DNA of 64,000 nt from an uncultured Candidatus Thioglobus sp. (GCA_964653365.1 CAZZER010000004.1:8429-72428); one strand, 5' to 3'; numbered from the stretch's first letter, positions 6,219-34,783 are shown. The notes: generated by a model from the letters alone, not told the origin. Made by a program: numbers and translations.

Positions 6219-6257
6219 GATTACAATATCGGTTTTTTTGGTTGCCTTGGGGGGTAA

Positions 6258-10204: not shown

Positions 10205-10208
10205 ATTT

Positions 10209-10243
10209 CTGGCTCATTAGTTCCATATTTTCTGGTTCTATAG
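10209..10243 (+). promoter_or_regulatory. Candidate TauR (MocR) operator, box B: CTGGCT-N17-CTGGTTCTATAG in the tauR/tpa divergent region
   Basis: Same geometry as box A, with an identical TTTCTGGTTCTATAG. It starts 5 nt from the tauR start codon and lies about 30 nt upstream of a possible -10 TACAAT (10272-10277) for tpa. Confidence 0.45.
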
Positions 10244-10317
10244 AAAGGGCAAACTTATAACTCTTATATCCTACAATTCCACTTATTGGTAAATTACACA
10301 AAAAAAAGGGGGGTGGT

Positions 10318-11679: not shown

Positions 11680-11703
11680 TTTTGATATTCAAGGGGGATT
11701 ATC

Positions 11704-14620: not shown

Positions 14621-14671
14621 GTAACTCGAAGCACTTTTTAGCTCTTTAAGAGTTGTGTGGCTTTCACAATT

Positions 14672-14697
14672 AAGGCAGGTTTTATCCTGCCTTTTTT
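14672..14697 (+). terminator. Rho-independent terminator after xsc copy 1
   Basis: aaggcagg-ttttat-cctgcctt followed by tttt. Confidence 0.75.
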
Positions 14698-14726: not shown

Positions 14727-14779
14727 TTGACACACTAATGGGAAACATGATAAGATGCTCGAAACTCATATATATGAGT
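14727..14779 (+). promoter_or_regulatory. P(sat-apr): TTGACA(14727-14732)-18 nt-TAAGAT(14751-14756), followed 7 nt later by the 16-bp palindromic operator ACTCATATATATGAGT (14764-14779)
   Basis: Read directly. The architecture is nearly identical to 26877-26927 and, on the minus strand, to 25952-25894. Confidence 0.65.
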
Positions 14780-15006
14780 AATATAAAGAGTAATCTCAAT
14801 AAGATATAGCAAAGTTAAAGTCTTGGATCAATGGATTGAATAATCTGGCTCTAAAGATTCGGTTTGTGATAAGTAAGAACGTTTTACAATTGACAAGCTT
14901 TAAATGATTAACCCGATGCAAAAATAAATGAGAAGCCGTTTTAAGAAAAAAATAATCAAACTAAACCTTTGCGTTGATATGGCTCCCTTAAAGCCAAAAG
15001 TTGATT

Positions 15007-16215
15007 ATGTCTAATTTAGTGCCTGCGCATGGCGGCCTTGGTTTAAAGCCTTTAGGTCTTAATGATTATGAATTAACATCAGAGTTATCTAGAGCACAAG
15101 ACTTGCCATCTATTCCTTGCTCATCAAGAGAATTTGGCGATATTATTATGATGGGTATTGGTGGTTTTACTCCCCTTGATGGCTTTATGAATGAAGCAGA
15201 CTGGAAAAATGTCTGCTCTAATATGACAATGTCTGACGGCCTCTTTTGGCCAATCCCTATAACCTTGTCAACGAACGACGAAAGTATTCAAGAGGGTGAT
15301 GACATTGCCTTAACATTTGGCGACAGTGGAGATGTAATCGCTACGATGACAGTCACTCAGAAATACTGTATTGATAAAGATTTTGAGTGTCAATCAGTCT
15401 ACAAAACTACCGACCAAGAGCACCCTGGCGTGTCTATGGTGATGGCTCAAGGTAAATACAATCTTGCAGGCTCTATTAAAGTTTTGTCAGACGGGCATTT
15501 TCCCCAGACTTACGGTAGGCTTTATATGACCCCCAGTGAGACACGAACCTATTTTGAAGAAAAAGGTTGGTCAAGTGTTGCTGCCTTCCAAACGCGAAAC
15601 CCTATGCATCGTTCGCACGAATATCTGGCAAAAATTGCGATAGAAATCTGTGATGGAGTGATGATACATTCAACTTTAGGTGAGCTTAAGCCTGGGGACA
15701 TCCCAGCAGAAGTTCGCTCAAACGCGATAAGTGCTCTTATTGAGAATTACTTTACCGACAATAGTGTGTTGCAATCTGGCTATCCACTAGACATGCGATA
15801 TGCAGGGCCACGAGAGGCACTCTTGCATGCTCTTTTCCGCCAAAATTATGGCTGCTCACATTTGATTGTTGGGCGTGACCATGCTGGCGTTGGTGACTAC
15901 TACGGACCTTTTGATGCTCACAATATTTTTGATGAAATTCCAAAAGATGCATTAATTACTCAACCCCTTAAGATTGATTGGACATTCTGGTGTAATAAGT
16001 GCGCAAGTATGGCCAGTATGAAGACTTGCCCACATAGTTCTGATGATAGGTTGTTATTATCAGGTACTAAACTAAGACATATGCTAAGCGAGAATCTTGA
16101 TGTTCCTGAGAATTTTTCTAGAGCAGAGGTCTTAACCATATTGCGCGACTATTATGCGAAGCTAAAAGACGATGAAAAAGTCAAGGTGGAGTTAAAAGGC
16201 CACTCGGCGCAATAA
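15007..16215 (+). CDS. sat: Sulfate adenylyltransferase (ATP sulfurylase, Sat type)
   Basis: Motifs [13 protein letters not shown] and [12 protein letters not shown]. The track starts at TTG 15001; ATG 15007 ([10 protein letters not shown]) is more likely. Confidence 0.9.
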
Positions 16216-16273
16216 AAATGTAATAGCGATTTTTTAACGAAATTTATTATTTATTTAAGGAGAGATAAAAGAG

Positions 16274-17098
16274 ATGATTTCAACCAACCGAATTGCTGAA
16301 TTGTCGGCAGAGATACCTTACGAAGTGATGCAATACTATGTTGCAATCATGATTGCGCTTGTTGTTATCGCAACAATTGTTGATGTTACTCATAAAAAAA
16401 GCGCTAAATATTTCTTTGAGAACGCTAAAAAGGCTCAAAAAAATGCAACAAGAAAGGTTCCCAGTGGAGAGAAGGCAAGCATTGCAATAAAAACCGCCAT
16501 AGAGGATGTTGCTCTTTCAGGTGAATTTTGCAATACTAGGCGTAGAATAGCCCATTTGCTTACTATGTATGGTTTTATTCTCTTTGTGCTTTCAACGGCT
16601 ATCATGGTCTTTTGTGCAGAATCCGGTGAATCCTATACTATCCTCCCACAGTTGTGGCATTTAGGTGCTGGCATGCTGGCATTAGGTAGTTGGTGGTTTT
16701 GGTTATTTATTCGAGTCGACGTTGCTGCTGAGGGTAACAAGTGGTACAACATTGAACCGATGGATTTATTTAGCCTGTCATTAATGGCTACATCGGCATT
16801 TGCCCTAATTTGGTCCCTTAGCGGTGGTGGCGTTGGCCTCTTGTTTGTTTTGTTTGTGGCTGCCAGCACTATTCTATTTGGTGGTGTTCTATGGTCAAAG
16901 TTTGCACATATGTTTTTCAAACCTGCAGCAGCGTTTAACAAACGCATGATGAAGGCTGATGGTTCTATGGAAAATCTACCAGAACCAGCTGACAGATCAA
17001 ACCCTGAAACTCGTGATAGGCACTCAATGCTATTGCTTAAAGATGCGCCGATGGATATGGGCTTAGGTATTAAGCGTGAAGCGCCACGCCATTATTAA
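16274..17098 (+). CDS. aprM: Polytopic membrane protein, AprM-like putative membrane anchor and electron-transfer partner of APS reductase
   Basis: 274 aa with several long hydrophobic segments. It lies immediately upstream of aprBA, as aprM does in sulfur-oxidiser-type apr loci. I could not verify any diagnostic motif by eye. Confidence 0.5.
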   Translation: MISTNRIAELSAEIPYEVMQYYVAIMIALVVIATIVDVTHKKSAKYFFENAKKAQKNATRKVPSGEKASIAIKTAIEDVALSGEFCNTRRRIAHLLTMYGFILFVLSTAIMVFCAESGESYTILPQLWHLGAGMLALGSWWFWLFIRVDVAAEGNKWYNIEPMDLFSLSLMATSAFALIWSLSGGGVGLLFVLFVAASTILFGGVLWSKFAHMFFKPAAAFNKRMMKADGSMENLPEPADRSNPETRDRHSMLLLKDAPMDMGLGIKREAPRHY

Positions 17099-17118
17099 TT
17101 AGATTAAGGAGAAAGATT

Positions 17119-17589
17119 ATGCCAACTTTTGTATATATGACTCGTTGTGATGGCTGTGGACATTGTGTTGATATTTGTCCTTCGGATATTATGCACATTG
17201 ATAAGAAGTACCGTCGTGCAGTAAACATAGAACCCAATATGTGTTGGGAGTGTTATTCTTGTGTCAAAGCTTGCCCACAAAATGCAATTGATGTGCGCGG
17301 TTATGCCGATTTTGCACCGCTAGGACACAGTGTTAGGGTGTTAAGAGAAGAGGAAAAAGGCACCATTTCATGGAAGATTAAATTCCGTGACGGACGTGAA
17401 AAGAACTTTGTTTCCCCAATAACAACCAAACCTTGGGGCGAAAATATTCCAAAACTTAGTGAGTTGCCAATGCCCACTGAAGACGAATTTAAGAACCAAT
17501 TACTTTGTTATGAGCCTGATGCGCTAAACCTCGAAGAGGGTCTTCATACAATGAAAAATCTAACACTCAAAGAGGGAGTTTATTACTAA
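17119..17589 (+). CDS. aprB: Adenylylsulfate (APS) reductase beta subunit
   Basis: Two ferredoxin-type clusters, CDGCGHCVDICP and CWECYSCVKACP, plus a long C-terminal tail. Translationally coupled to aprA (TAATG). Confidence 0.85.
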   Translation: MPTFVYMTRCDGCGHCVDICPSDIMHIDKKYRRAVNIEPNMCWECYSCVKACPQNAIDVRGYADFAPLGHSVRVLREEEKGTISWKIKFRDGREKNFVSPITTKPWGENIPKLSELPMPTEDEFKNQLLCYEPDALNLEEGLHTMKNLTLKEGVYY

Positions 17590-19442
17590 TGGCAAAAGTT
17601 AAAACAATCTACGAAAATTGCGATGTGCTGGTTGTCGGTGGTGGCATGGGCGGCACGGGCGCGGCTTATGAGGCAAGATATTGGGGACGGGACATGAAAA
17701 TTGTTGTTGCCGAAAAGGCTAACATCGACCGCTCTGGTGCTGTTGCACAAGGCTTATATGCAATTAACTGCTACATGGGAACCCAGTGGCAAGAAAACAA
17801 TCCAGAGGATCATGTTCGCTATGCGAGAAATGATCTAATGGGCATGGTTCGAGAAGATCTCGCTTATGATATGGCTCGCCATGTTGATTCAGCTGTGCAT
17901 AAATTTGAAGAGTGGGGCTTACCATTGATGCGCAACGAAGAAACTGGTCGTTATCAAAGAGAGGGTAAGTGGCAAATTATGATCCATGGTGAGAGTTACA
18001 AGCCAATTGTAGCGGAGGCGGCGAAAAAATCTGCTGACAAAGTCTACAACCGCATAATGGTCACTCATTTGTTAATGGATGAAAATCAAGAAAATCGTGT
18101 TGCTGGCGCAGTTGGCTTTAATTGTCGCACGGGCAATTATCACGTTTTTAGAGCAAAAGCGGTAGTAGTTTCTGCCGGTGGTGCGTCTCACATTTTCAAA
18201 CCTCGTTCCGTAGGTGAAGGCATGGGTCGAACTTGGTATGCACCGTGGAGCAGTGGCTCAGCGTATGCGTTATCGATTGAGGCTGGCGCAAAAATGACAC
18301 AAATGGAAAACCGTATTGTATTGGCCAGATTCAAAGACGGTTATGGGCCAGTTGGTGCCTACTTTCTACACCTTAAAACATATACTCAAAACGGTTATGG
18401 TGAAGAATACGAGTCCAAATGGTACGAACACACAAAGGAAATTGTTGGCGAATATATAGATCACACACCAACGCCAACTTGTTTGCGTAATCATGCTTTT
18501 ATTGAGGAAGTAAAAGCGGGTCGTGGCCCTATTCACATGGTCACTATGGAAGCTTTCCAAGACCCTCATCTTGAAGAAGTGGGATGGGAAAACTTTCTTG
18601 GTATGACTGTTGGTCAAGCGGTAGTTTGGGCTTCGCAAAATATCGATCCTAAATACATCAATCCTGAATTAACAACCTCCGAACCTTATGTGATGGGTTC
18701 ACATGCAACTTGTTCTGGCGCTTGGTGTTCCGGACCAGAGGATCTCTCTCCGCCAGAATATTTCTGGGGCTACAACCGAATGATGACGGTGGATGGTTTG
18801 TTCGGCGCTGGAGACGCTATTGGTGGTACAGCGCATGCGTTTTCATCGGGTTCTTTTACTGAGGGTCGTTTGGCTGCAAAAGCTGCAGTTAATTACATTC
18901 TCGATGGTAAGGGTGAGGATATTGATGTATCAAAGAAAAAAATTGCTGAACTAAAAGAGGCGATATATAAACCTCTCGAAAATTACACAGTTGGACGCAA
19001 TGAAATTGTCGGTGGTACGGTTTCCCCAAGCTATCTTTTGCCAATCCAAGGGCTTCAACGCCTTGAAAAAATTATGGATGAATACTGTGGTGGCATTGGC
19101 GTTAATTATATGACCAATGATAAACTGCTTAACATGGGCTTAGAAAAACTAGCGGTCCTTGAAGAAGATTTAGACCACATCGGTGCTGAGGATACTCACC
19201 AATTGATGAGAGCGTGGGAATTGAAGCATCGTCACCGCACATCTGAATGTGTCATGCAACATACCTTATTCCGCAAAGAGACGCGCTGGCCAGGGTATTA
19301 CTATCGTGGGGACGCACTCAAACTGGATGACGAGAATTGGCATGTACTAACTGTTTCAAGACGTAACCCTGAGACAGGGGAGTACACGATGGAGAAAGCA
19401 CCGGTGTATCACTTGGTTGATGATGAACAGGGGGCTGGCTAA
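17589..19442 (+). CDS. aprA: Adenylylsulfate (APS) reductase alpha subunit (flavoprotein)
   Basis: 617 aa. FAD fold DVLVVGGGMGGTGAAYEA. Fumarate-reductase-like flavoprotein layout, paired with aprB and sat. Confidence 0.85.
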   Translation: MAKVKTIYENCDVLVVGGGMGGTGAAYEARYWGRDMKIVVAEKANIDRSGAVAQGLYAINCYMGTQWQENNPEDHVRYARNDLMGMVREDLAYDMARHVDSAVHKFEEWGLPLMRNEETGRYQREGKWQIMIHGESYKPIVAEAAKKSADKVYNRIMVTHLLMDENQENRVAGAVGFNCRTGNYHVFRAKAVVVSAGGASHIFKPRSVGEGMGRTWYAPWSSGSAYALSIEAGAKMTQMENRIVLARFKDGYGPVGAYFLHLKTYTQNGYGEEYESKWYEHTKEIVGEYIDHTPTPTCLRNHAFIEEVKAGRGPIHMVTMEAFQDPHLEEVGWENFLGMTVGQAVVWASQNIDPKYINPELTTSEPYVMGSHATCSGAWCSGPEDLSPPEYFWGYNRMMTVDGLFGAGDAIGGTAHAFSSGSFTEGRLAAKAAVNYILDGKGEDIDVSKKKIAELKEAIYKPLENYTVGRNEIVGGTVSPSYLLPIQGLQRLEKIMDEYCGGIGVNYMTNDKLLNMGLEKLAVLEEDLDHIGAEDTHQLMRAWELKHRHRTSECVMQHTLFRKETRWPGYYYRGDALKLDDENWHVLTVSRRNPETGEYTMEKAPVYHLVDDEQGAG

Positions 19443-19482
19443 CAAGCCCGCTGAAAAGCAAAACGTCAAATTTAATCAAAAG

Positions 19483-19512
19483 ACCGTTATACTTATTGTG
19501 TAGCGGTTTTTT
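19483..19512 (+). terminator. Rho-independent terminator after aprA
   Basis: accgttatac-ttatt-gtgtagcggt forms a 10-bp stem with two G-U pairs, followed by ttttt. Confidence 0.6.
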
Positions 19513-19524
19513 AATGTATAGAAA

Positions 19525-19875
19525 ATGAACTTATTAAATAAAACAGACGATGAGATTCTTGAGATTGCTAACCCAATGTGGCGCAATCTTATTAAGAATT
19601 CGAATAATCAAAACTACATCGGTTTCACCAAGAATTTTTCCAAAGAAATGTTGCGGGGAGCCAACGAAATCGAAGTTGGAAAACAATGGGCGAGAAACGA
19701 GTTAACCAAGAACTTATCCAAAGACATGGAATTACTTGGCATTCTTAGGCGAGGCGATCATGTCAGTATTTTATACAAGCAAACAAATAAGAAAATCCCT
19801 GGGGAATACTTGGGTCGTCTTGTGCTAGGTGTGGAGGATGGTATGGTTAGAATTTTTGGTGCAACGATATTTTAG
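19525..19875 (+). CDS. Hypothetical protein (116 aa)
   Basis: Clean ORF with an ATG start after the aprA terminator. No motif recognised. Confidence 0.45.
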   Translation: MNLLNKTDDEILEIANPMWRNLIKNSNNQNYIGFTKNFSKEMLRGANEIEVGKQWARNELTKNLSKDMELLGILRRGDHVSILYKQTNKKIPGEYLGRLVLGVEDGMVRIFGATIF

Positions 19876-19882
19876 CCATGTT

Positions 19883-20377
19883 ATGAAAGAAATTATTCAA
19901 GACGATAAATTTGTCGAATTAAACTACAAAATTACAGATCAAAAAACGGGTGAAATAATTGCTCAAGTGAATGTACCTTTGGGTTATGTTCAAGGCGATA
20001 AATCGCCATTATTGCCTCAAGTCATCCAGGCGCTTGAAGGAAAGTCGGTCGGTGATAAAATAGATGTGCCAATAGATTGCACTGAAATATTTGGCCCATG
20101 GGATAAGGATTTAACCTTTACAGACGACCTTGAAAACGTGCCAGAGGAGTATCGCTCGATTGGTACTAAAATCACGATGGAAAATAACGAGGGTGAGCCT
20201 AAAGATTTTTTTGTAACCAAGATTGAAAATAACAAGCTTACAGTAGATGGCAACAATCCTTTGTGCGGTAGGGAAGTGATTTTTTCCTTAAAGATTATTT
20301 CAATTCGCGATGCAACCGAAGCAGAGATTGAATCTGGTTGTGCCGTAGAGGTTGATCCAAACGAAACACGACATTAA
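19883..20377 (+). CDS. FKBP-type peptidyl-prolyl cis-trans isomerase, SlyD/SlpA-like
   Basis: From the internal ATG at 19883: MKEIIQDDKFVELNYKITD...; IF-domain-like insert; LTVDGNNPLCGREVIFSLKIISIRDATEAEIE matches the SlyD-family C-terminal motif (hPLAGk.L.F.v.v..vR.At.eE). No His-rich tail. Confidence 0.7.
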   Translation: MKEIIQDDKFVELNYKITDQKTGEIIAQVNVPLGYVQGDKSPLLPQVIQALEGKSVGDKIDVPIDCTEIFGPWDKDLTFTDDLENVPEEYRSIGTKITMENNEGEPKDFFVTKIENNKLTVDGNNPLCGREVIFSLKIISIRDATEAEIESGCAVEVDPNETRH

Positions 20378-20396
20378 TATCATTAATGCAATTATT

Positions 20397-20744
20397 ATGC
20401 CAATAGACTTCTCCCTTTTAGAAATAAACCTAGCAAAGAACCTTGTTAATGATCGATGGCGTGACGTAAAAATTGAGCTCGCTGATGTTGAAGTCTCAAG
20501 ATCATCGAAAAGCGAATCTTTGCCTTATCCAGCCCTTGTATGGGAGGCCTCAAAGTGCACGTTCGTTGTTATCAAGGTCGACGAATCCGCCTATAAGTGT
20601 ATTTTTTATTATTTAGGTACACAACGTTTTGATACTGGGGTCAATGAGTATGAAGATTTACACGATTGTGTTCTTTCGATCATGAAGCTTCAAGCCAACT
20701 TTTTGTTGACAAAAAACAACGATATCAGCGTTTCAAACACTTAA
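20397..20744 (+). CDS. Hypothetical protein (115 aa from ATG 20397)
   Basis: ORF only; no motif recognised. The track start at 20352 overlaps the upstream gene. Confidence 0.4.
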   Translation: MPIDFSLLEINLAKNLVNDRWRDVKIELADVEVSRSSKSESLPYPALVWEASKCTFVVIKVDESAYKCIFYYLGTQRFDTGVNEYEDLHDCVLSIMKLQANFLLTKNNDISVSNT

Positions 20745-20753
20745 AGAAATAAG

Positions 20754-21242
20754 CTAAGCAGAAAGGTCGTTAAAGACATGCGACTCAAACATCCAATTTT
20801 CTTTGTTGTCGATTGTTAGCGTTAAACATCTGGGCCCACCCTGGTTGCGAACACCACCTGAAGCTCCAGGGTTGATTATCCAAGGTTTGGTGTCATCGTC
20901 TATTGTTTGCACATGAGTGTGCCCATATACAACAGCCTTTGCGTCTGGATAAGTTCTTCTTAGTGAGTCATGGCACGGTTGGTAATGACCATGCTTATGC
21001 CCGTGCTCTATTACCAGGGTGCCACCAGGTAAATCAAGGCTCTCAACTTCTTTAAGGAAGAGCATGTGTGGATCATTGTTTCCTTGAACTGCAATAAGCT
21101 TTTGTCTTGGTGTAAGGTATTGCAGGATGGATTCATCAATAATATCTCCAGCATGAACAGCAAAATCACAGTTGTTAATCAACTCGACTATTTGCGGGTG
21201 GATTTCACCATGTGAGTCTGAAAGAATTGCAATAGTTACCAT
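20754..21242 (-). CDS. YfcE/MJ0936-family metallophosphoesterase
   Basis: Motifs DSHG, HAGD, GNND, EHGH and GHTH occur in canonical order. Lies 22 nt downstream of the soeC-like gene on the same strand. Confidence 0.8.
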   Translation of the reverse strand: MVTIAILSDSHGEIHPQIVELINNCDFAVHAGDIIDESILQYLTPRQKLIAVQGNNDPHMLFLKEVESLDLPGGTLVIEHGHKHGHYQPCHDSLRRTYPDAKAVVYGHTHVQTIDDDTKPWIINPGASGGVRNQGGPRCLTLTIDNKENWMFESHVFNDLSA

Positions 21243-21263
21243 ACAAAAAACCTTTATAAATTA

Positions 21264-22190
21264 TTATGCTTCTCTGCCATAGTATAAATTGACAACGTGT
21301 TTGGCTTCAGCAAAAAATAGCCATCTTTCCAACAGGGCGCCAAGGAAGCAAGTACATGTCGCACTAACTAATGTAACAAAATCAAAACCCTGTAACAAGC
21401 TGAATACTGGAAAAACTACCATCAAAATGAGAGAAGCATAACGAAGTACCTGCACTTTTTTTGCAGATACCTCAAAACCAAATTCACGCATTGAGAAGTT
21501 TTTGGCACTTTCACCCGTATGCAATAAGCGCACGGTTCTTGCAGAGAGACCTGTTGCTGTTTTGATACTTAGACCAGAGGGTTTGCCTATAAAGTAATAG
21601 TAAATGATTTTAGTAATAAGAACCAATGTGGGTAAAACAAGCAATATTTCAACGGGCATATTAGGCCCTTGATCAAAGAATTTGAAGATTGATAGGCATG
21701 CTAGGGAGCCAGAAAGTAGCCCAATTAATATGTAATTGCATGGTACTAGGGGTGAATTCCAGGCGCGAATAGTCTTAAGGCACGCATAAATCATTCCCGT
21801 TGAATAAATCGTGATTAATGAAATAGCCATGAGAGTAATTGCAATAGAACTAAACAACGTTTCGCTTGCTTCGAACAGATAGAATGAAGCGATAAAAATC
21901 AACGCGATAGGAAAACTTAACACCGCAAATACACCTTCTCTTGAAAGCCAAGATGAACGAAAACGCAAAAATGCTCGCCAAGCATTCTTTGGATTTGCCA
22001 AATGAAATGTTGATGAAATTAACCCCAGCACAACACAAAGTAAACCAAAGGACGTACTTGTGAATAGCGCATCAGAAAAGTGATTTACAGACTCTTTACT
22101 GAGCAGTGCAATTAACGCGGAGAAAACCAAAACGCCATATCCCATTCCTGAGGAGACCGTAAATAAGATAACTGAAAAAGCTGGATGCAT
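21264..22190 (-). CDS. soeC: DmsC/NrfD-like polytopic membrane anchor subunit, SoeC-like
   Basis: 308 aa, about 8 hydrophobic helices. Third gene of the molybdoenzyme operon. Confidence 0.6.
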   Translation of the reverse strand: MHPAFSVILFTVSSGMGYGVLVFSALIALLSKESVNHFSDALFTSTSFGLLCVVLGLISSTFHLANPKNAWRAFLRFRSSWLSREGVFAVLSFPIALIFIASFYLFEASETLFSSIAITLMAISLITIYSTGMIYACLKTIRAWNSPLVPCNYILIGLLSGSLACLSIFKFFDQGPNMPVEILLVLPTLVLITKIIYYYFIGKPSGLSIKTATGLSARTVRLLHTGESAKNFSMREFGFEVSAKKVQVLRYASLILMVVFPVFSLLQGFDFVTLVSATCTCFLGALLERWLFFAEAKHVVNLYYGREA

Positions 22191-22205
22191 AATTACTCCA
22201 ATTAG

Positions 22206-22898
22206 TTAGCGACTAATTAACTCATTCGCCCAGTTTTTAACTTGGCTAATGAGTGTTTTTGGTTTTTTGTCAATCTTGATATTGTTGGCAAGTCTTGGCG
22301 GTAAATATTGGTTTGTTGGGTTGTATCCAAGTTCACTCATTAAACCATCGCCATTTCTCTCACGAGTTAGCTTGCTAACATTCGAGTTAGGGTCATCGAA
22401 GTCGCCAAAATGGCGTGCACTGGTTGGGCAGGTCATAACACATGAGGGTTGGCGCTCAGCCTCTGGCAGTGATTCATCATAAATTCGATCAACACATAGG
22501 GTGCACTTTTTCATCGTGCCAGATTCTCTGTCTAGTTCTCTAGAGCCATAAGGGCAGGCCCATGCGCAATAATTGCAACCCATGCATTTGTCTTGGTCAA
22601 TTAAAACAATGCCATCGCTTTTGCGTTTGTAAGATGCACCTGTTGGACAAACAGTAACACAGGCGGCCTCTTCACATTGCATACAAGACATAGGGAAATT
22701 AACCGTTTTATCATGAGGGTAGTCGCCTTCTTCGTAAACACGAACACGGTTAAAAAAAACGCCCGAAGGATCTTTGTCATAAGGTTTATGATCGCTAAGT
22801 GAGCCTGTTGTTCCAGATGTGTTCCATTCTTTACAGGAAATGGCGCAAGCATGACAACCAACACAGGTGTCTAAATCAATAACTAATCCTAATCTCAT
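22206..22898 (-). CDS. soeB: 4Fe-4S ferredoxin-type electron-transfer subunit (DmsB-like), SoeB-like
   Basis: Cys clusters CVGCHACAISC, CMQCEEAACVTVCP, CMGCNYCAWACP and CTLC...C. Confidence 0.7.
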   Translation of the reverse strand: MRLGLVIDLDTCVGCHACAISCKEWNTSGTTGSLSDHKPYDKDPSGVFFNRVRVYEEGDYPHDKTVNFPMSCMQCEEAACVTVCPTGASYKRKSDGIVLIDQDKCMGCNYCAWACPYGSRELDRESGTMKKCTLCVDRIYDESLPEAERQPSCVMTCPTSARHFGDFDDPNSNVSKLTRERNGDGLMSELGYNPTNQYLPPRLANNIKIDKKPKTLISQVKNWANELISR

Positions 22899-22907
22899 AA
22901 TATCTCC

Positions 22908-25841
22908 TTAACGCGCTTTTTTGCCACGGGTTAATACGTCTTTTGTTGGGCGCACAATATTGACAGGGTCGTGAGTTTTGTATCTAAGAATGTCGGGTTG
23001 TAATGGTGCGTTAGGTATAGGCTTAATAGTGTCAAACTGCGGGAATGAAACCGGCGTTTGATCTTCAGCTCTTCGCACTTTGACTCGGGCGTCGTACCAA
23101 GCAGCTTGGCCAGTAATTGGGTCAGAATTTGTCAATTCTTTTCTGGAAGGTGAATTGGGTAACAATTCTGAAATTAAATGGTTAAGCAAAAAGCCTTTTT
23201 CCGATTCGTTAGAACCCGCTTTTAAGCCCCATGCGCCAGATTGCTTGCCAATAGCGTTCCAAGTCCAAACAGTGTGCTTTTCACAACCTTCCATCAACTT
23301 AGCTTGAACTTTAATTGCGCCACTTCTAGATTCGACCCATACCCAATCGTGCTCAGCAATACCCATCGATTCAGCGATTGTTCGATTAATATAAAGCCTA
23401 TTTTGAGCCATAATTTGACGCAACCAAGCGTTTTGTGAATCCCATGAGTGGTACATAAACATTGGTCTTTGAGTGGTGGTTGAGAAAGGATATTCATTTT
23501 CATCAATCATTTCCACCTCAAGAGGTTTGTAGTAACTTGGGCAGGGTGTAAAGTATTTGCTTAAACGTTCTTTATCAGTTTCGTTTGTGGGGCAAGGTCC
23601 GTCGTAAAGGCCCTTTCCAGCTAAGCGGAACTTTTGCAAGGTCTCTGAGTACAACTCCATGACAATGGGTTTGTCATTAAAATTTAAATGAGTCTCGGCT
23701 GCAAACTCAAGATACTCTTTATTAGCAAAACGATAGTACTTTTGTGAGTCCGGAATTTTGGTCTCGAAAAAACTTTCGTTTTCAATATATTTTTCCCACT
23801 GATCCGGGTTTGGCTCTCCAACAATACTTTTTTCACCGTTTTTACCTCTCCAGCCAGCTAAAAAACCTATTCCGGGGTGCTTTTCCCAATTGGTGATAAA
23901 TTCTTTGTAACCTGAGTATTTAGCGCTGCCATCCGCATTCGTGAATACGGGAAATTTTAACCTAGTGCCCAAGTCAACCATGACTTCTTGCCATGGCCTG
24001 ACATCGCGATCTAGTTCAACAATTGGGTGTCTGATTGAGTCAGCAATAACATGCGGCTCGGAAATAGGGCGGTCAAGGATAGAGATTGTGTCGAAGCGCT
24101 CTAGGTAGGTAGTGTCAGGCAGAATAAGGTCGCCAAAATTAACTGTTTCTGAGTGAAAAGTGTCCACAACCACCAAGTACGGAATTTTATATTCACCGTT
24201 TTCGTCTTTTTCTCGTAAAAGTTTTTGGGTGTCTCCGGGATTCATGCTTGAATTCCATGCCATATTCGCCATAAAGAAAATAAGCGTATCAATTGAGTAT
24301 GGATCTCCCTTTACTGCGTTGTTGACCACCATATGCATAAGGCCGTGGTTTGCAATGGGCGCTTCCCATGAATAGGCTTTATCAATTCTAAGTGGTTTTC
24401 CGCTCTTGTCGATACACAGATCTTCTGGACATGTAGGAAAGCCTAAAGGTGGTGTTTTTAAAGGCGTATTAGGCGACATCTCTTTTGCCGGTTTAATTGG
24501 CGGCGGTATCATTCTTGGGAAGGGAGGCTTTGCCAAGTGTGACCCCGGGCAATCAATGGCTCCTAACAGCACTTGCAAGATATGAATGGCGCGACAAGTT
24601 TGAAAGCCGTTCGAGTGTGCAGCGATACCACGCATCGCATGCATTGACACTGGTCTGCCAATAAATTTATCGTGTTTTCTGCCAGTCCAATCTGTCCATT
24701 CCGTTTCAATTTCTATGGTTTCTTGAAAAGCTACATGTGACATTTCTAAAGCATGTCTTTCGATATCTTCAACAGAGATACCAGTTTCTTTCTCAATCTT
24801 TTCTAAGCTGTATTCATCATCAAGGTAAGTTTCAACCAAAATAGTAAAAGAGGTTTTAACCATAAAACCTTCATCAGTTTGCCACTCACCAAATAAAGCA
24901 GGCTTTATATCTGCTTGACTCGCATCCACAAAGCTGTTTTCTTCAAGCTCCCAAGCCAGAGGCTTGCCTTCACTGTTTCGCCAAATAAGGCCGTCATTGC
25001 TTTGGCCTGGATTTTGAATAACCAAATGAGGCGCATTGGTGTAACGCACCAAAAATTCTTTGTCAAATTGATCGTTTTCAAGCAATACACGAGACATTCC
25101 TATTGCAAACAAGCCATCGGTTCCTGGTCGGATAGGAATCCACTCATCAGCAATAGCTTGGTAGCCAGTACGCACTGGGTTTACGGTGGCAAATTTAGCA
25201 CCATTTTTTTTCAGTTTTGAAAGACCGATTTTAATTGGATTTGACGAATGGTCTTCGGCTACACCCCAAAGCATAAAGTACTTGGTATTATCCCAATCAG
25301 GATCGCCAAACTCCCAAAATGACTGCCCTAATGTATAGAGACCCGCCGCCGCCATATTGACAGAGCAAAAGCCGCCGTGTGCAGACCAATTAAGCGTTCC
25401 AAATTGTTGTGCCCAAAGCCCCGTAAGCGCCTGCATTTGATCTCTGCCGGTAAAAAAAGCCAATTTTTTTGGGTCAGTATCACGGATTTTTTGTAAACGC
25501 TCTGTGAGTTCGTTCAGGGCTTCATCCCAGGATATAATCTCGAACTCCCCTGCACCTCTTTCTGTACCAGGCTTTCTGCGCATGGGAGAGTGGAGTTTAG
25601 CCATAGATTCATGCTTCATAATGCCAGCATTGCCTTTGGCACAAAGCACACCTTTGTTTATTGGGTGGTTGCGATTACCTTGTATGTAGCGAACTTTTTT
25701 CCCTTCAAGCGTCACTTTGATGCCACAACGGCAAGCACACATATAGCAAGTGGTTGTTTTTACTTCTTGATTTGATCTGTCTTCAAAAATCGGTAAAGGG
25801 TCTTCAAGATCAATATTTTGCGGGCATGTTTGTGTGCTCAT
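22908..25841 (-). CDS. soeA: Bis-MGD molybdopterin oxidoreductase catalytic subunit without a Tat signal, SoeA-like (cytoplasm-facing sulfite:quinone dehydrogenase)
   Basis: 977 aa. N-terminal FeS motif CYMCACRCG...C. There is no RRxF(L/K) motif in MSTQTCPQNIDLEDPLPIFEDRSNQEVKTTT. The three-gene A-B-C layout and sulfonate context fit SoeABC. Confidence 0.65.
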   Translation of the reverse strand: MSTQTCPQNIDLEDPLPIFEDRSNQEVKTTTCYMCACRCGIKVTLEGKKVRYIQGNRNHPINKGVLCAKGNAGIMKHESMAKLHSPMRRKPGTERGAGEFEIISWDEALNELTERLQKIRDTDPKKLAFFTGRDQMQALTGLWAQQFGTLNWSAHGGFCSVNMAAAGLYTLGQSFWEFGDPDWDNTKYFMLWGVAEDHSSNPIKIGLSKLKKNGAKFATVNPVRTGYQAIADEWIPIRPGTDGLFAIGMSRVLLENDQFDKEFLVRYTNAPHLVIQNPGQSNDGLIWRNSEGKPLAWELEENSFVDASQADIKPALFGEWQTDEGFMVKTSFTILVETYLDDEYSLEKIEKETGISVEDIERHALEMSHVAFQETIEIETEWTDWTGRKHDKFIGRPVSMHAMRGIAAHSNGFQTCRAIHILQVLLGAIDCPGSHLAKPPFPRMIPPPIKPAKEMSPNTPLKTPPLGFPTCPEDLCIDKSGKPLRIDKAYSWEAPIANHGLMHMVVNNAVKGDPYSIDTLIFFMANMAWNSSMNPGDTQKLLREKDENGEYKIPYLVVVDTFHSETVNFGDLILPDTTYLERFDTISILDRPISEPHVIADSIRHPIVELDRDVRPWQEVMVDLGTRLKFPVFTNADGSAKYSGYKEFITNWEKHPGIGFLAGWRGKNGEKSIVGEPNPDQWEKYIENESFFETKIPDSQKYYRFANKEYLEFAAETHLNFNDKPIVMELYSETLQKFRLAGKGLYDGPCPTNETDKERLSKYFTPCPSYYKPLEVEMIDENEYPFSTTTQRPMFMYHSWDSQNAWLRQIMAQNRLYINRTIAESMGIAEHDWVWVESRSGAIKVQAKLMEGCEKHTVWTWNAIGKQSGAWGLKAGSNESEKGFLLNHLISELLPNSPSRKELTNSDPITGQAAWYDARVKVRRAEDQTPVSFPQFDTIKPIPNAPLQPDILRYKTHDPVNIVRPTKDVLTRGKKAR

Positions 25842-25893
25842 TCTCGATTTGGCAATGCTTATATTAATTAAAAGGAAGTTTGTGATTTGAGTA

Positions 25894-25952
25894 ACTCATA
25901 TATATGAGTACATTCGGTGTTAATTTTACTTGGTTGTAAGTCTGCTTGGCAA
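25894..25952 (-). promoter_or_regulatory. P(soe): reading the minus strand, TTGCCA(25952-25947)-18 nt-TAAAAT(25928-25923), followed 13 nt later by ACTCATATATATGAGT (25909-25894)
   Basis: Read directly. Same palindrome and same 18-nt spacer as the other two promoters. Confidence 0.6.
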
Positions 25953-25989
25953 TAAATATAAGAGGTCTGATAATTTGCTGGGCAATAAA

Positions 25990-26709
25990 TTATTCTGGCA
26001 CACCAATAGTGGTTGTGTAACTGAACATATCAGCACGACCAGTTGTTATACGATATTCAACCAACCCTTTGCCTTTTGCATAAGAATGACGGTTTAGGAT
26101 AACAACAGGGTCTCCCTCATTAATATCAAGAATAGTAGCAGTTTTATTATCAGCAATGCTTGCAGTTAGTATTTCTTTAGATGAGGTAACATGGGTTCCA
26201 AATTGTTTGGATACCAATGCATATAACAAGTCTGGGATATGAACGCTAGATTTCTGCAAACCCTCAACTGTCTCAGCGATCCACCAAGATTTTTCAATTA
26301 TGATCGGGTGCTTTTTATCGATATATCCCATTCTTTCTAGGTAAATCACTTCGTCACCATGCTCAATTTCAAGTTGATGGCTGATTTCAGCGGTAGCAGA
26401 AATCTTTTTTCTAACCGGAGTTGTTTTATAGATGCGGATTGACGAGCCAGTGCTACTACCATAACTGAAAAAGTTAAACATACTATTGTCAAAGCCATAA
26501 TCCGAAACATAGGTGCCTTTACCATGATGGCGATAGAGTAATTTGTCTTGCTCAAGAATATCAATGGCCTTTCTGACTGTCCCAACACTGACGCCGAGTA
26601 ATTTTGACAGCTGTGATTCAGAGGGCACAAGGTCACCAACCATTAATTCACCACTAGTAATTCTATCCTTAATATGGTCAACTACAGTTTCGTAAAGTTT
26701 CTTTTTCAA
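25990..26709 (-). CDS. GntR-family transcriptional regulator, HutC subfamily (wHTH plus UTRA effector domain)
   Basis: 239 aa. N-terminal HTH ESQLSKLLGVSVGTVRKAIDILEQDKLLYRHHGKGTYV. The C-terminal ~160 aa have UTRA-like length and pattern. Confidence 0.8.
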   Translation of the reverse strand: MKKKLYETVVDHIKDRITSGELMVGDLVPSESQLSKLLGVSVGTVRKAIDILEQDKLLYRHHGKGTYVSDYGFDNSMFNFFSYGSSTGSSIRIYKTTPVRKKISATAEISHQLEIEHGDEVIYLERMGYIDKKHPIIIEKSWWIAETVEGLQKSSVHIPDLLYALVSKQFGTHVTSSKEILTASIADNKTATILDINEGDPVVILNRHSYAKGKGLVEYRITTGRADMFSYTTTIGVPE

Positions 26710-26876
26710 AGCAAGGCATATAATTGAATTTTGATATATGATAACACACTGATCATATCCACGAAGACTCGTATTGGTCCATTTAATTATAGTATGTCAA
26801 TTAAGGTGCAGTTATAACTAATTGTTTTTTATTGAAAAATATAATTTTTTGCTTTATATCAATATAAAAAATATAA

Positions 26877-26927
26877 TTGACAACCTGTAAGTTGCCATGG
26901 TAAGATGCATCACTCATATATATGAGT
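26877..26927 (+). promoter_or_regulatory. P(tct): TTGACA(26877-26882)-18 nt-TAAGAT(26901-26906), followed 5 nt later by ACTCATATATATGAGT (26912-26927)
   Basis: Read directly. It lies in the divergent region between the GntR gene and tctA. Confidence 0.65.
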
Positions 26928-26974: not shown

Positions 26975-28486
26975 ATGGAATATTTCGTATTTTTAGACTA
27001 CTTTGATAACGTTTTTACTTGGTATCACTTAGCACTACTTATTGGCGGTACATTTGCTGGAATTGTTTTGGGAGCATTGCCTGGCCTTAGCCCAACTATG
27101 TCTGTTGCTCTTCTTATTCCATTTACTTTCCATATGGAGCCAGCTAGTGGCCTAATTTTGTTAGGTGCTATGTACACAGCCACTGTAGCTGGTGGCGCGA
27201 TTAGTGCTATCTTGGTGAATGTGCCTGGCGCACCGGCTAATATTGCTACGGCTATGGATGGTCATAAACTAGCAAAGCAAGGCAAGGCAAAAGAAGCTCT
27301 TCACTATTGCTTTATGTCGTCATTTGTTGGCGGTATATTTGGTGTTATTATTCTAATTTTCTTTACCCCACCTTTGGCTGAATGGTCGCTAAAATTTGGC
27401 ACGACAGAGCTTTTTTGGGTTGCGATTTTAGGTATTACCATCATTGCAACAATTGACTCGAATTCTGTTGTCAAAGGCCTTTTATCAGGCCTTTTTGGTT
27501 TGATATTGGCGACAGTGGGTGACAATCCGGTTCTTGGCGTTGAAAGATTTGTGGTCTCAGATCACCTTACCGGCGGTGTTAATATTGTTGTTGGTTTGAT
27601 TGGTTTGTTCGCAATGCCACAAGTCCTAAGCCTGATGGAGGGTTATTATAAAGACAAACACGATGTATTAGAAGCCACAGGTTCTTCCACTTTGCTTCAA
27701 TCATTTAGGTATGTACTTAGCCGTATTAAAGCGTTGTCAATTGGATCTGTCGTTGGCTCTTTGATTGGCATCATCCCAGGTGCTGGCGGACAAATAGCGG
27801 GCCTAGTTTCCTACGATCAGACAAAAAAAGTAAGTAAAGTCCAGGACAATTACGGCAAGGGTGAGCCAGAAGGTGTTGTCGCAGCTGAAAGCGCAAACAA
27901 TTCGATGGTTGGGCCTTCTTTAATTCCGTTATTAACTTTGAGTATTCCAGGCAGCCCTACAGCAGCGGTTTTGTTGGGTGGTCTTCTTATTCATGGTATT
28001 TTTCCTGGCCACGAAATTTTTGTGTCAGAAAATACTAAAGAAGTGGTTTGGACATTTATTGATTCTTTAATTCTTGCGCAAGTGTTCATGCTTATTATTG
28101 GTCTTTTCCTAAGCAGACATAGTGGCTGGATTATGAAAGTACCTGACAACTATATGGCTGTCGGTATTTTTGTTTTGGCAGTTTTTGGTACTTATAGTAT
28201 CGGTAACTCGTATTCAGATGTGTTGATCATGGTTACTTTGGGCACTGTAATGTTTTTTGCCAGTAAGGCAGGTTTTAGCGCTGTACCTGTTGTGTTGGGT
28301 ATTATTTTGGGTCCAATTGCTGAGAATAACTTTTTATTGGGTAAATTAATTGGCGGTGCAAAATATCAAGGTGATTGGTGGCTGTACTTTGTTCGCGATT
28401 CTCTCAATATAACTTTGATTGCAATCTGTTTACTTTCAATCGCATGGGGTGTTTACTCCACAACAAAATCTAAGAATAAATCTTAA
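26975..28486 (+). CDS. tctA: Tripartite tricarboxylate transporter (TTT) large permease, TctA family
   Basis: 503 aa, highly hydrophobic. TctA-like pattern GALPGLSPTMSVALLIPFTF..., ...IIPGAGGQIAGLVSYDQ..., ...LSIPGSPTAAVLLGGL. Confidence 0.8.
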   Translation: MEYFVFLDYFDNVFTWYHLALLIGGTFAGIVLGALPGLSPTMSVALLIPFTFHMEPASGLILLGAMYTATVAGGAISAILVNVPGAPANIATAMDGHKLAKQGKAKEALHYCFMSSFVGGIFGVIILIFFTPPLAEWSLKFGTTELFWVAILGITIIATIDSNSVVKGLLSGLFGLILATVGDNPVLGVERFVVSDHLTGGVNIVVGLIGLFAMPQVLSLMEGYYKDKHDVLEATGSSTLLQSFRYVLSRIKALSIGSVVGSLIGIIPGAGGQIAGLVSYDQTKKVSKVQDNYGKGEPEGVVAAESANNSMVGPSLIPLLTLSIPGSPTAAVLLGGLLIHGIFPGHEIFVSENTKEVVWTFIDSLILAQVFMLIIGLFLSRHSGWIMKVPDNYMAVGIFVLAVFGTYSIGNSYSDVLIMVTLGTVMFFASKAGFSAVPVVLGIILGPIAENNFLLGKLIGGAKYQGDWWLYFVRDSLNITLIAICLLSIAWGVYSTTKSKNKS

Positions 28487-32914: not shown

Positions 32915-32917
32915 ACA

Positions 32918-34720: not shown

Positions 34721-34783
34721 AACATCCTGAGGTTATGTTTCTAGCCTCTTCTCCATATGGGTAGGTTGATGGCTACCAAACCA

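Follow-up and report, generated by a model that had tools for sequence, protein, structure and literature searches.

The window, by which we mean the whole 64 kb stretch of DNA that was analysed, carries genes for sulfite oxidation and for sulfonate uptake and breakdown, with a regulator gene between them:

15007-16215, + strand: sat (NCBIfam model passed above its cut-off)
16274-17098, + strand: aprM-like membrane protein (weak QmoC/TcuB membrane-domain matches only)
17119-17589, + strand: aprB (NCBIfam model passed above its cut-off)
17589-19442, + strand: aprA (NCBIfam model passed above its cut-off)
19525-20744, + strand: three small ORFs 3' of aprA (116, ~180 and ~115-130 aa), recognised by synteny
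20754-21242, - strand: yfcE-like phosphodiesterase, downstream in the soeABC block (20754-25841)
21264-22190, - strand: soeC, DmsC/NrfD membrane-anchor subunit
22206-22898, - strand: soeB, 4Fe-4S subunit
22908-25841, - strand: soeA, Mo-bisPGD catalytic subunit
25990-26709, - strand: HutC-type GntR regulator, 239 aa (Pfam GntR winged helix-turn-helix and UTRA)
26975-28486, + strand: tctA (Pfam TctA)
28488-28940, + strand: tctB (Pfam TctB)
28964-29923, + strand: tctC (Pfam TctC)
30008-32914, + strand: sauS-sauT fusion, 968 aa (SauS equivalog and AMP-binding ligase half)
32945-34717, + strand: xsc copy 2 (xsc model passed)
34848-35843, + strand: pta (pta model passed)

The sat-aprMBA genes (15007-19442, + strand) encode AMP-dependent sulfite oxidation. 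The three small ORFs that follow are probably part of the apr operon: they are syntenic with aprA in the related loci L009, L010 and L013, and two of the three lie after aprA in L202 and one in L166. A Pfam search of the three gave no match; one of them shows a weak FKBP-type PPIase match. The soeABC block contains all three subunit types expected of a SoeABC-like molybdoenzyme. A twin-arginine motif was sought at the SoeA N-terminus (MSTQTCPQNIDLEDPLPIFEDRSNQEVKTTTCYMCACRCG) and is absent, consistent with the cytoplasmic orientation of SoeABC. The closest named SoeA homologs (66-70% identity) carry the generic name 'molybdopterin oxidoreductase', come mostly from Thioalkalivibrio, Acidithiobacillus and Ectothiorhodospira, and have hosts that are mostly sulfur oxidisers. 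The putative role of soeABC is direct sulfite:quinone oxidation.

The SauS equivalog NF047625 matches residues 6-465 of the 968-aa fusion protein with 705.9 bits (cut-off 600). Its C-terminal half belongs to the AMP-binding acyl-CoA ligases, with no SauT-specific model among the best 25 of its 145 matches, and the fusion of SauS to an acyl-CoA ligase is kept in most orthologous loci. The gene identities proposed in the sequence-only reading (sat-aprMBA, soeABC, the GntR regulator, tctABC, the fusion gene and xsc) were borne out by Pfam and NCBIfam, with the aprM product as an AprM-like membrane protein and soeABC as a SoeABC-like molybdoenzyme. Its imported sulfonate also stands and can be narrowed to what is most likely sulfoacetate, since the SauS equivalog passed and a TTT sulfoacetate transporter is known (PMC10413351). 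The tct-sauST-xsc-pta group, with its TTT transporter, SauS-SauT fusion, Xsc and Pta, therefore appears to be a sulfoacetate-specific core.

A palindrome shared by three promoters

The features that connect these operons are a self-complementary 16-mer and the predicted promoters next to it, which were located by a consensus scan:

14727-14756, + strand: promoter P1 of sat-aprMBA, TTGACA-18-TAAGAT with an extended -10 TG (10 of 12 consensus matches)
14764-14779: palindrome 1, ACTCATATATATGAGT, 7 nt after the -10 of P1
25894-25909: palindrome 2, 13 nt after the -10 of the soeA promoter
25923-25952, - strand: soeABC promoter, TTGCCA-18-TAAAAT (the TAAAAT -10 is also present in L009)
26877-26906, + strand: tctA promoter, TTGACA-18-TAAGAT with an extended -10 TG
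26912-26927: palindrome 3, 5 nt after the -10 of the tctA promoter

Exact search places three copies of the palindrome in the window, and the sigma70-like promoters, their 18-nt spacers and the gaps of 7, 5 and 13 nt (sat, tctA, soeA) are as the sequence-only reading had described them. In the sat P1 and tctA promoters a TG lies directly 5' of the -10, and the architecture of the tctA promoter is the same in L009, L010, L011 and L013.

Could these copies be chance occurrences, or a generic repeat that regulates nothing? The 16-mer is rich in A and T, and unrelated metagenome contigs contain it too. However, only 0.20 matches at up to three mismatches are expected in the whole window and four were observed, a number reached by none of 100 dinucleotide-preserving shuffles. 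The fourth match (56185, three mismatches) lies inside an ORF (55322-57079) and scores at the null level. When the window was scanned with a position weight matrix derived from orthologous sites, each of the three palindromes scored 28.4 bits and the next-best site 7.9 bits; in 30 first-order Markov sequences with the dinucleotide transitions of the window, the maximum averaged 7.9 bits and reached 12.1 at most. Beyond the three exact copies, no other site in the 64 kb resembles the palindrome. Only the 16 bp are common to the three sites, and because their flanks differ they do not belong to a longer dispersed repeat. All three copies, against an expectation of about zero, lie on promoters of functionally linked operons. 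Together with the conservation across lineages at the same promoter positions, described below, these statistics effectively refute a chance or generic-repeat origin.

The regulator and the conservation of its candidate operator

The sequence-only reading had assigned the regulator to the HutC-type GntR proteins, and its domains and alignments agree. The N-terminus is a GntR winged helix-turn-helix (PF00392, with no weak mark in Pfam) that aligns to the DNA-binding domain of NagR, and the C-terminus is a UTRA effector domain (PF07702). Among solved structures, the protein matches NagR (YvoA) over its full length (residues 11-235) and DasR over nearly its full length. The NCBIfam models HutC, PhnF and TreR match it below their curated equivalog cut-offs, which places it in the HutC subfamily and in none of these named orthologous groups.

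The palindrome is a 16-bp dyad with a 4-nt centre, ATAT, a geometry that would be typical of HutC operators. The published consensus is NyGTMTAKACNy, with GT and AC 4 nt apart (PMC4494728); here the corresponding positions read AT and AT. In NagR, two arginines read the GG of dre sites (PMC4333415). These residues, Arg38 and Arg48, align to Ser and Val in the present regulator, consistent with an operator that does not contain those guanines.

The sequence-only reading suggested a search of relatives and comparative footprinting of orthologous loci, and this comparison points to the same regulator. About 30 non-redundant orthologous loci carry the palindrome between gntR and tctA with 0-2 mismatches; they span several gammaproteobacterial families and regulator identities down to 45%. 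Among 14 GTDB ortholog loci, the gntR-tctA spacer carries the site (up to two mismatches) in 10 and the variant GTCAT-N4-ATGAC in two, and one is rearranged; in 262 kb, only one such palindrome lies outside these spacers. In a Halomonas locus (L019), the regulator ortholog is present and the palindrome is absent. The orthologous palindromes are exact or nearly so while their flanks diverge, and they always overlap core promoter elements, either after the -10 or, in Njordibacter-like loci, between the -35 and the -10.

The sites at sat and soeA are less widespread. All three sites are kept in a sister lineage (L009/L220/L221) whose genes show about 75-86% nucleotide identity. There, sat P1 is conserved in L220/L221 in its -35, its -10 block and, with one mismatch, its palindrome, and the soeA palindrome is exact in L009 and L220/L221 with diverged flanks. 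Upstream of sat, an exact or one-mismatch palindrome also occurs in 13 metagenome loci and in L222/L223, so that this site recurs in the sister lineage and in Thioglobus-like lineages; among relatives, the soeABC site is confined to the sister lineage. The L010 lineage lacks the sat palindrome despite an 82% identical regulator, and soeA relatives at 78-88% identity have no palindrome at soeA. These absences suggest that two of the three targets are recent, lineage-specific additions to a conserved tct-sauST core.

The genes of more distant paralogs of the regulator (32-35% identity; Bradyrhizobium, Rhodopila, Methylobacterium) are preceded at 39-54 nt by AGTCAT-N4-ATGACT, and in the annotated Bradyrhizobium locus L032 the paralog gene heads an MFS-amidohydrolase operon. 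A near-identical palindrome beside alphaproteobacterial HutC paralogs with unrelated targets argues that the motif tracks the regulator clade and not the target genes. The exact 16-mer was located in 120 metagenome stretches, among them 18 gntR-tctA spacers and 13 regions upstream of sat; unrelated contexts also occur, for example beside PIN-toxin genes on high-GC soil contigs and on eukaryotic DNA. Generic scatter, which would speak against an operator, is not seen in the window, where only three promoter sites occur, although metagenomes also hold copies in unrelated contexts.

Instead, the palindrome might be the binding site of some other factor whose gene lies elsewhere, such as a global sulfur or redox regulator, with the GntR protein acting on another target. 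To our knowledge, the palindrome does not resemble Fur, CRP/FNR, PurR or similar boxes. It does not have the GT-N4-AC hallmark of HutC operators (PMC4494728), and some sat-linked copies lie on contigs with no gntR nearby. Against this, it co-localises with gntR orthologs in the roughly 30 diverged loci and accompanies distant regulator paralogs in unrelated gene contexts, which makes a different factor improbable. A role at the RNA level, as a hairpin at the mRNA 5' end affecting stability or translation, seems very improbable. In all three promoters of the window the palindrome does follow the predicted -10, and it can form a 6-bp stem with a 4-nt loop (MFE -5.4 to -7.1 kcal/mol in folded stretches of 41-43 nt). 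However, z-scores no stronger than -1.4 to -2.2 mark these hairpins as weak, conservation is as high in the ATAT loop as in the stem, and second palindromes occur upstream of gntR in either orientation. Both in Njordibacter-like loci and 5' of an HTH-Pta fusion gene, the palindrome overlaps the -35 or the spacer, where it would be untranscribed.

In our view the HutC-type regulator (25990-26709) probably uses the palindrome as its operator and thereby couples the three operons by repression. The link between tct-sauST-xsc, soeABC and sat-aprMBA put forward in the sequence-only reading is supported by the roughly 30 gntR loci, the sat and soeA sites of the sister lineage, the sat sites of Thioglobus-like lineages and the palindromes of the paralogs. 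Autoregulation through the 26912 site, which that reading had also considered, finds no support in this genome: the site is 203 bp from the gntR start, and the window contains no second palindrome close to that start. In other lineages, a palindrome lies 66-83 nt upstream of gntR.

Proposed regulation and a probable second promoter of sat-aprMBA

We propose that a regulator dimer binds each copy of the palindrome. As each copy lies at or just after a predicted transcription start, the bound protein would stop transcription at three promoters, during initiation or early in elongation. The first would serve tctABC-sauST-xsc-pta, for sulfoacetate uptake and its conversion through sulfoacetyl-CoA to sulfoacetaldehyde and desulfonation; the second soeABC, for direct sulfite:quinone oxidation; and the third, P1, AMP-dependent sulfite oxidation by sat-aprMBA. 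The repressor would be released by a small anionic pathway metabolite in the UTRA domain, and as the likeliest effector we would guess sulfoacetate or an early intermediate.

The regulator could also bind the palindrome as an activator or dual regulator, which we regard as unlikely. The 18-nt spacers are suboptimal and can indicate a need for activation, and the known sulfoacetate regulator, SauR of C. necator, is reported as an activator (PMC7057948). On the other hand, a site at +1 to +20 or between the -35 and the -10 is where a repressor binds; near-consensus hexamers and an extended -10 occur together in two of the three promoters; and NagR and DasR, the closest characterised HutC members among solved structures, are repressors (PMC4333415, PMC4918961).

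Upstream of sat, the window contains a taurine module (8732-14693) and, downstream of palindrome 1, elements of what appears to be a second, TauR (MocR)-type promoter of sat-aprMBA, P2:

8732-10204, - strand: MocR/TauR-like regulator, 490 aa
10208-10243: TauR-type box pair
10318-11679: tpa
11704-12819: ald
12845-14617: xsc copy 1, 100% identical to xsc copy 2
14672-14693: terminator, end of the module
14822-14856, + strand: TauR (MocR)-type direct-repeat box pair, cTTGGATCAATG ... CTGGCTCTAAAG, upstream of sat
14885-14890, + strand: candidate -10 of P2, TACAAT, 28 nt after the TauR-type box

The sequence CTGGYTCTAWAG occurs only at 2861, 10232 and 14845. The box pairs at tauA, tpa and sat share a spacing of 22-23 nt, with TAnAAT 28-29 nt further on; only tpa and sat have the composite CTGGYTCTAWAG-N28-TACAAT (two matches, 0.00 expected). 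The sat pair resembles the published TauR repeat, CTGGACYTAA (PMC4494728), and is conserved with the P2 -10 in L220/L221. A MocR-type regulator with direct repeats about two helical turns apart upstream of promoters is the arrangement of a candidate TauR (MocR) regulon. The MocR/TauR-type regulator encoded nearby would drive P2, which together with P1 would allow sulfite from taurine or from sulfoacetate to induce sat-aprMBA. Taurine and sulfoacetate signals may thus converge at this operon. A single effector co-inducing everything, as first suggested, is too simple, because sat-aprMBA also has this conserved box pair with its own -10.

In a sister lineage, the same winged-helix domain is joined to a complete phosphotransacetylase (406 aa) in place of the UTRA sensor, with an exact palindrome 79 nt upstream of the fusion gene. 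This HTH-Pta protein could be a 'trigger enzyme' that reads Xsc-made acetyl-phosphate and regulates its own gene, and it might also control sat-apr.

In the proposed regulon, sulfoacetate import and breakdown would be switched together with two systems that oxidise the toxic sulfite produced, and two sulfonate-specific signals would converge on one operon, sat-aprMBA. A HutC-type repressor with a palindromic operator is itself a known kind of system. The wider picture is one we hold tentatively, with more doubt than confidence: dissimilatory sulfite oxidation in abundant marine Gammaproteobacteria wired to organosulfonate supply by a conserved HutC-type repressor and its palindrome, with TauR-type convergence at sat-aprMBA and a Pta-fusion trigger enzyme.

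Comparison with known systems

NagR (YvoA) of Bacillus subtilis and DasR of Streptomyces, the closest solved structures, have the same two-domain architecture, although the sequences are only distantly related (phmmer E-value 1.8e-15). Both are dimeric repressors on promoter-overlapping dyad operators with a 4-nt centre and leave the DNA when their UTRA domain binds a small anionic effector (PMC4333415, PMC4918961). A dyad with a 4-nt centre over a predicted promoter is seen here as well. The half-site differs: it is ACTCATAT here, whereas dre half-sites carry the consecutive guanines G-5 and G-4 read by NagR (PMC4333415). Our targets are sulfonate and sulfite genes, and those of NagR and DasR are amino-sugar genes.

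The sulfoacetate cluster of C. necator, described by Weinitschke in 2010, reportedly uses an MFS transporter. SauR of Cupriavidus necator H16 controls the same enzymes, SauS and SauT, is divergently encoded and has sulfoacetate as its inducer; the passages of PMC7057948 that describe it report an activator, in contrast to the repressor proposed here, and mention no link to sulfite oxidation. In Bilophila wadsworthia, the TTT transporter SauXYZ adjoins SauS, as tctABC does here, and its binding protein binds sulfoacetate by ITC; this precedent, with the gene context, supports tctABC as a putative sulfoacetate importer (PMC10413351). The Bilophila locus belongs to an anaerobic, sulfite-respiring pathway via isethionate, with no sulfite oxidation, and the word 'regulator' is absent from the main text of PMC10413351.

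TauR of Rhodobacter capsulatus and Sinorhizobium meliloti, a MocR-subfamily activator of taurine dissimilation, also controls sulfonate catabolism via Xsc, and a TauR-like regulator and its boxes are present in this window as well. TauR differs from the HutC-type regulator in its GntR subfamily, its aminotransferase-like sensor, its response to taurine and its activation from direct repeats (CTGGACYTAA) instead of a palindrome. Reconstructed TauR regulons elsewhere include BisC/HybA/DmsC genes (PMC5320631), which in our reading look like SoeABC and thus provide a precedent for a sulfonate regulator coupled to sulfite oxidation.

The palindrome and its setting in the window

The 16-mer ACTCATATATATGAGT is its own reverse complement, and the window search returned exact copies at 14764-14779, 25894-25909 and 26912-26927, the same three that the sequence-only reading had reported. 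When up to three mismatches are allowed, one extra match appears in the window, at 56185; 0.20 matches are expected, and none of the shuffles reached four. The match at 56185 (three mismatches) was discarded, as it lies within a listed ORF (55322-57079) and scores at the null level. Upstream of this 585-aa ORF, a cobalamin riboswitch aptamer (57184-57247, - strand) was detected at 32.1 bits, just above the Rfam gathering threshold of 31.5. A weight matrix made from the sites at orthologous loci was then run over the window. All three copies score 28.4 bits and the runner-up position 7.9 bits, which is the level reached by random sequence. The scan of the window revealed no weaker additional sites, including in the vicinity of the gntR promoter.

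A consensus scan recovered the three promoters proposed earlier, together with the distances from the -10 to the start of the palindrome:

14727-14756, + strand: TTGACA-18-TAAGAT, with a TG before the -10 (extended -10); palindrome (14764) after 7 nt
25952-25923, - strand: TTGCCA-18-TAAAAT; palindrome (25894) after 13 nt
26877-26906, + strand: TTGACA-18-TAAGAT, with a TG before the -10 (extended -10); palindrome (26912) after 5 nt

The repeat shared by the three regions ends with the 16 bp, and an Rfam search gave no match in the region of interest. That the element works instead as an RNA hairpin is a weak alternative: in a context of 41-43 nt it folds with only -5.4 to -7.1 kcal/mol (z-scores of -1.4 to -2.2), and in some lineages the site would escape transcription altogether.

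Genes of the window
3039-8729: tauABC and an FAD/GcvT-domain gene (taurine module)
8732-10204, - strand: MocR/TauR-like regulator (taurine module)
10318-14617: tpa-ald-xsc (taurine module), with a terminator (14672-14693) at its end
15007-19442: sat, an AprM-like gene, aprB and aprA, then three small conserved ORFs
21264-25841, - strand: soeABC, accompanied by a YfcE-like phosphodiesterase gene
25990-26709, - strand: gntR, encoding the 239-aa regulator with GntR and UTRA domains
divergent from gntR: tctABC, a 968-aa fusion gene, a second xsc and pta

In the 968-aa fusion, the N-terminal half scores 705.9 bits with the SauS equivalog model (cut-off 600), and the C-terminal half is an AMP-forming acyl-CoA ligase. 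In Bilophila, a TTT transporter adjoining SauS binds sulfoacetate (PMC10413351), and for this reason the sulfonate imported by the window's tctABC is most likely sulfoacetate. SoeA carries no Tat signal, and its nearest named homologs (66-70% identity) come mostly from sulfur oxidisers. The nearest named relatives of the regulator are from 'Gammaproteobacteria bacterium' (78%) and Candidatus Thioglobus sp. (72%). The contig itself derives from a marine metagenome and is present in many assemblies.

The two xsc copies, one after tpa-ald (12811-14625) and one after sauST (32911-34725), share 100% nucleotide identity over about 1.8 kb. In the sister lineage (L220, L009), xsc also occupies both positions, and the two are 98.0% identical across samples; background divergence between the samples is of the same size. 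The identical copies suggest gene conversion, or possibly assembly collapse.

Two further features of the gene order were observed. The last gene of the tauABC operon (6258-8729) encodes an 823-aa fusion of an FAD oxidoreductase and a GcvT-like domain, of the dimethylglycine/sarcosine-dehydrogenase type, and it is also kept at this position in L220 and L221 of the sister lineage. Between 19525 and 21242, three small ORFs without a Pfam match and the YfcE-like phosphodiesterase gene accompany aprA in several lineages. Behind aprA, all three ORFs are found in L009, L010 and L013, two in L202 and one in L166; one of them has a weak FKBP-PPIase match. These ORFs may be accessory to APS reductase.

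Distribution of the site and extent of the predicted regulon

Orthologous loci, with protein identities of 46-90%, were collected by regulator-homolog lookups and one GTDB genome scan. Their sources are uncultured marine Gammaproteobacteria, Poriferihabitaceae, Arenicella, Candidatus Njordibacter, Oceanospirillaceae, Sedimenticolaceae and Chromatiales. With few exceptions, gntR and tctABC are divergent in these loci, and a SauS or SauS-SauT-like gene follows tctABC. A search of relatives with one or two mismatches had been suggested as a check on the palindrome; the gntR-tctA spacer holds it with 0-2 mismatches at 10 of the 14 GTDB ortholog loci. Two more (L023, L024) carry the variant GTCAT-N4-ATGAC, one is rearranged, with a one-mismatch site following tctC (L022), and one, from Halomonas (L019), has the ortholog and lacks the site. 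Beyond the gntR-tctA spacer, a single site with up to two mismatches occurs in the 262 kb of these 14 loci. The flanks of the site cannot be aligned between lineages, and its position at the core promoter is kept. Most loci have it a few nt past the -10; in Njordibacter-like loci it falls between a TTGAC -35 and the -10. The conserved operator core is TCAT-N4-ATGA.

The proposal that the 26912 site also autoregulates gntR found no support in this genome: the site lies 203 bp away from the start of gntR, and the gene has no proximal site. In other lineages, a second site lies 66-83 nt upstream of gntR.

L220 and L221 show full synteny with the window from tauC to gntR and belong to the same lineage as L009 (98% nucleotide identity between them in aprA and soeA), at just 75-86% nucleotide identity to the window's genes. 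Upstream of sat they carry TTGACA-18-TATGAT-7-ACTCATATATATGAAT, and upstream of soeA the palindrome is exact. L009 likewise has an exact copy at soeA, and a one-mismatch copy at tctA. In the Thioglobus-like contigs L222 and L223 (contigs up to 556 kb), ACTCATACATATGAGT lies upstream of sat, 12 nt after TATAAT; in Thioglobus-like genomes, the sat site and gntR were never found within 10 kb of each other. The L010 lineage, whose regulator is 82% identical, has sat-aprMBA nearby, with no site upstream of sat at up to three mismatches, and the palindrome is absent at soeA relatives of 78-88% identity (L213-L215). Because of these absences, we consider that the conserved core of the predicted regulon is tct-sauST. 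Several lineages would add sat-apr to it, and soeABC would be included only in the window lineage and its sister lineage.

Two arrangements in these relatives deserve mention. In L215 (SoeA 88% identical), soeA is divergent from pta, and the spacer (1508-1823) lacks the palindrome and contains two copies of TATGAATATATAT, which resembles a variant half-site. In Thioglobus-like contigs (L222/L223 6904-10000, L102, L158, L164, L166, L178, L182 and L202), the palindrome sits in the intergenic region between sat and a divergent AzlC-family gene. The neighbors annotated, in L222 and L223, are azlC, then azlD and a SulP/STAS transporter gene; these genes may serve the export of sulfate or sulfite and be controlled together with sat.

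Metagenome contigs were also scanned for the exact 16-mer, giving at least 120 stretches, which were sorted by tblastn and flanking-ORF clustering. Among the matches listed, 18 are gntR-tctA spacers, 13 lie directly upstream of sat-aprMBA, one is upstream of a gene for a GntR-HTH::Pta fusion and one upstream of a 33%-identical HutC paralog. The 13 sat regions form at least four groups by their differing flanks, with the palindrome exact in every one; where a -10 is readable, it is 12 nt upstream of the palindrome, as in TTGACA-18-TATAAT-12-palindrome. The remaining listed matches are two unrelated recurrent contexts and singletons, eukaryotic DNA among them, and flank analysis of the listed matches gave no further coherent regulon member. 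One recurrent context adjoins PIN-domain toxin genes in high-GC soil contigs (L093, L094, L110, L142, L147, L188), and the other adjoins the gene for a 183-aa protein of unknown family (L121, L132, L137, L179, L186, L189). Both are unrelated to sulfonates.

A second candidate promoter of sat-aprMBA

TauR is a MocR-type activator. Exactly three copies of the 12-mer CTGGYTCTAWAG lie in the window, one each ahead of tauA, tpa and sat, and each has a CTGG/TTGG box 22-23 nt upstream and a TAnAAT hexamer 28-29 nt downstream:

2837-2872: TauR(MocR)-type direct-repeat box pair (CTGG...N...CTGGYTCTAWAG), upstream of tauA
10208-10243: box pair of the same type, upstream of tpa
14822-14890: TauR(MocR)-type box pair and TACAAT, upstream of sat and downstream of the palindrome

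The composite CTGGYTCTAWAG-N28-TACAAT gives two matches against 0.00 expected. The box pairs resemble the published TauR direct repeat CTGGACYTAA (PMC4494728). Since the TauR-like boxes and TACAAT downstream of the palindrome are conserved (both are kept in L220 and L221) and the gene for a MocR-type regulator adjoins, sat-aprMBA is probably transcribed from tandem promoters, of which P1 would answer to the HutC-type repressor and P2 to a TauR-type activator. P2 would account for the disposal of taurine-derived sulfite, with no need for the GntR regulator to sense a shared intermediate. BisC/HybA/DmsC genes are already part of TauR regulons that were reconstructed in other bacteria (PMC5320631); they resemble SoeABC.

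The regulator, its proposed mechanism and known systems

Besides the orthologs, the GTDB scan gave 66 HutC paralogs at greater distance. Ten, from Bradyrhizobium, Rhodopila and Methylobacterium (L027-L035, L041; 32-35% identity), carry A(G/C)TCAT-N4-ATGACT 39-54 nt before the start codon of their own gene (around 9947-9979), usually as the sole such match in the 20-kb locus. In the locus annotated, Bradyrhizobium L032, the paralog gene leads an operon that also encodes an MFS transporter and an amidohydrolase and has no relation to sulfonates; the predicted operator type is also used in this unrelated pathway. These distant paralogs, because they carry a near-identical motif beside non-sulfonate genes, are the strongest argument for assigning the palindrome to this regulator clade and not to another factor. 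In betaproteobacterial paralogs, TCAT-N4-ATGA matches about 5.2 kb away were set aside as irrelevant, being inside the coding motif NFMRMMF. Covariation of recognition helix and operator gave no usable signal, as PSESQLS/VSVGTVRKAI and PSEPQLA/VSQGTVKKAI regulators both occur with ACTCAT...ATGAGT.

A related domain occurs outside the window in about 35 protein clusters from marine metagenomes, as 406-aa fusions of a GntR winged helix to a complete phosphotransacetylase. The winged-helix domain is 59-67% identical to that of the window regulator (63% in L194). In both loci examined (L194 473-1772 and L216 7392-8691), the palindrome is exact 79 nt upstream of the fusion gene, where it overlaps the likely -35 of a TGnTAAAAT promoter. 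The downstream neighbors (etfQO, etfAB and a two-component system) are those of the window pta, and the protein is labelled plain Pta wherever sources give a name. Provided that it binds DNA, the fusion would be an enzyme-regulator reading the acetyl-phosphate branch of the Xsc reaction.

The nearest solved structures to the regulator are NagR/YvoA, a full-length match, and DasR. The usual HutC operators are palindromes, NyGTMTAKACNy, with GT and AC 4 nt apart (PMC4494728); the window site (cAT-ATAT-ATg) has the same geometry but A/T where the hallmark has G/C. The two half-site guanines are read by arginines in NagR (Arg38 and Arg48), and the minor groove is contacted by its wing residue Gly69 (PMC4333415). 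The window regulator has Ser (PSES) and Val (VSVGT) aligned with these arginines and retains the wing glycine (HMMER alignment). We infer that a protein without both guanine-reading arginines fits an operator without those guanines.

The sites span roughly +1 to +20, or the promoter spacer, and NagR and DasR, the nearest characterised HutC members among the solved structures, are repressors (PMC4333415, PMC4918961). On these grounds, we propose that the regulator would block its promoters sterically and that a pathway metabolite would lift the repression. The likeliest candidate effector is sulfoacetate or an early intermediate, because the regulator is invariably linked to genes for the transporter and SauS/SauT; of all steps in the mechanism, this one is the least secure.

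Taurine, sulfoacetate and other sulfonates are major marine carbon and sulfur currencies, and their desulfonation liberates toxic sulfite. Our literature search found no paper tying a GntR/HutC regulator to sulfoacetate, soeABC or aprBA-sat, and no description of sulfite oxidation (SoeABC, AprBA-Sat) being coordinated with sulfonate catabolism in hetero- or mixotrophic marine bacteria. The value of the present analysis is a well-supported, testable predicted regulon that would tie sulfonate supply to dissimilatory sulfite oxidation in widespread marine bacteria, with three testable items: the regulator, the 28-bit predicted operator and the set of target operons. The predicted operator is conserved from SUP05/Thioglobus relatives through sponge-symbiont and Oceanospirillales lineages and could serve as a metagenome marker for annotating the sulfoacetate/sulfite regulon, and the regulator-operator pair is a candidate sulfonate biosensor. 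The sole characterised sulfoacetate regulator, SauR of C. necator, is reported to be an activator, and HutC is not among the regulator types that the SauR study lists (PMC7057948). For the HutC family, the mechanism proposed here is an ordinary one.
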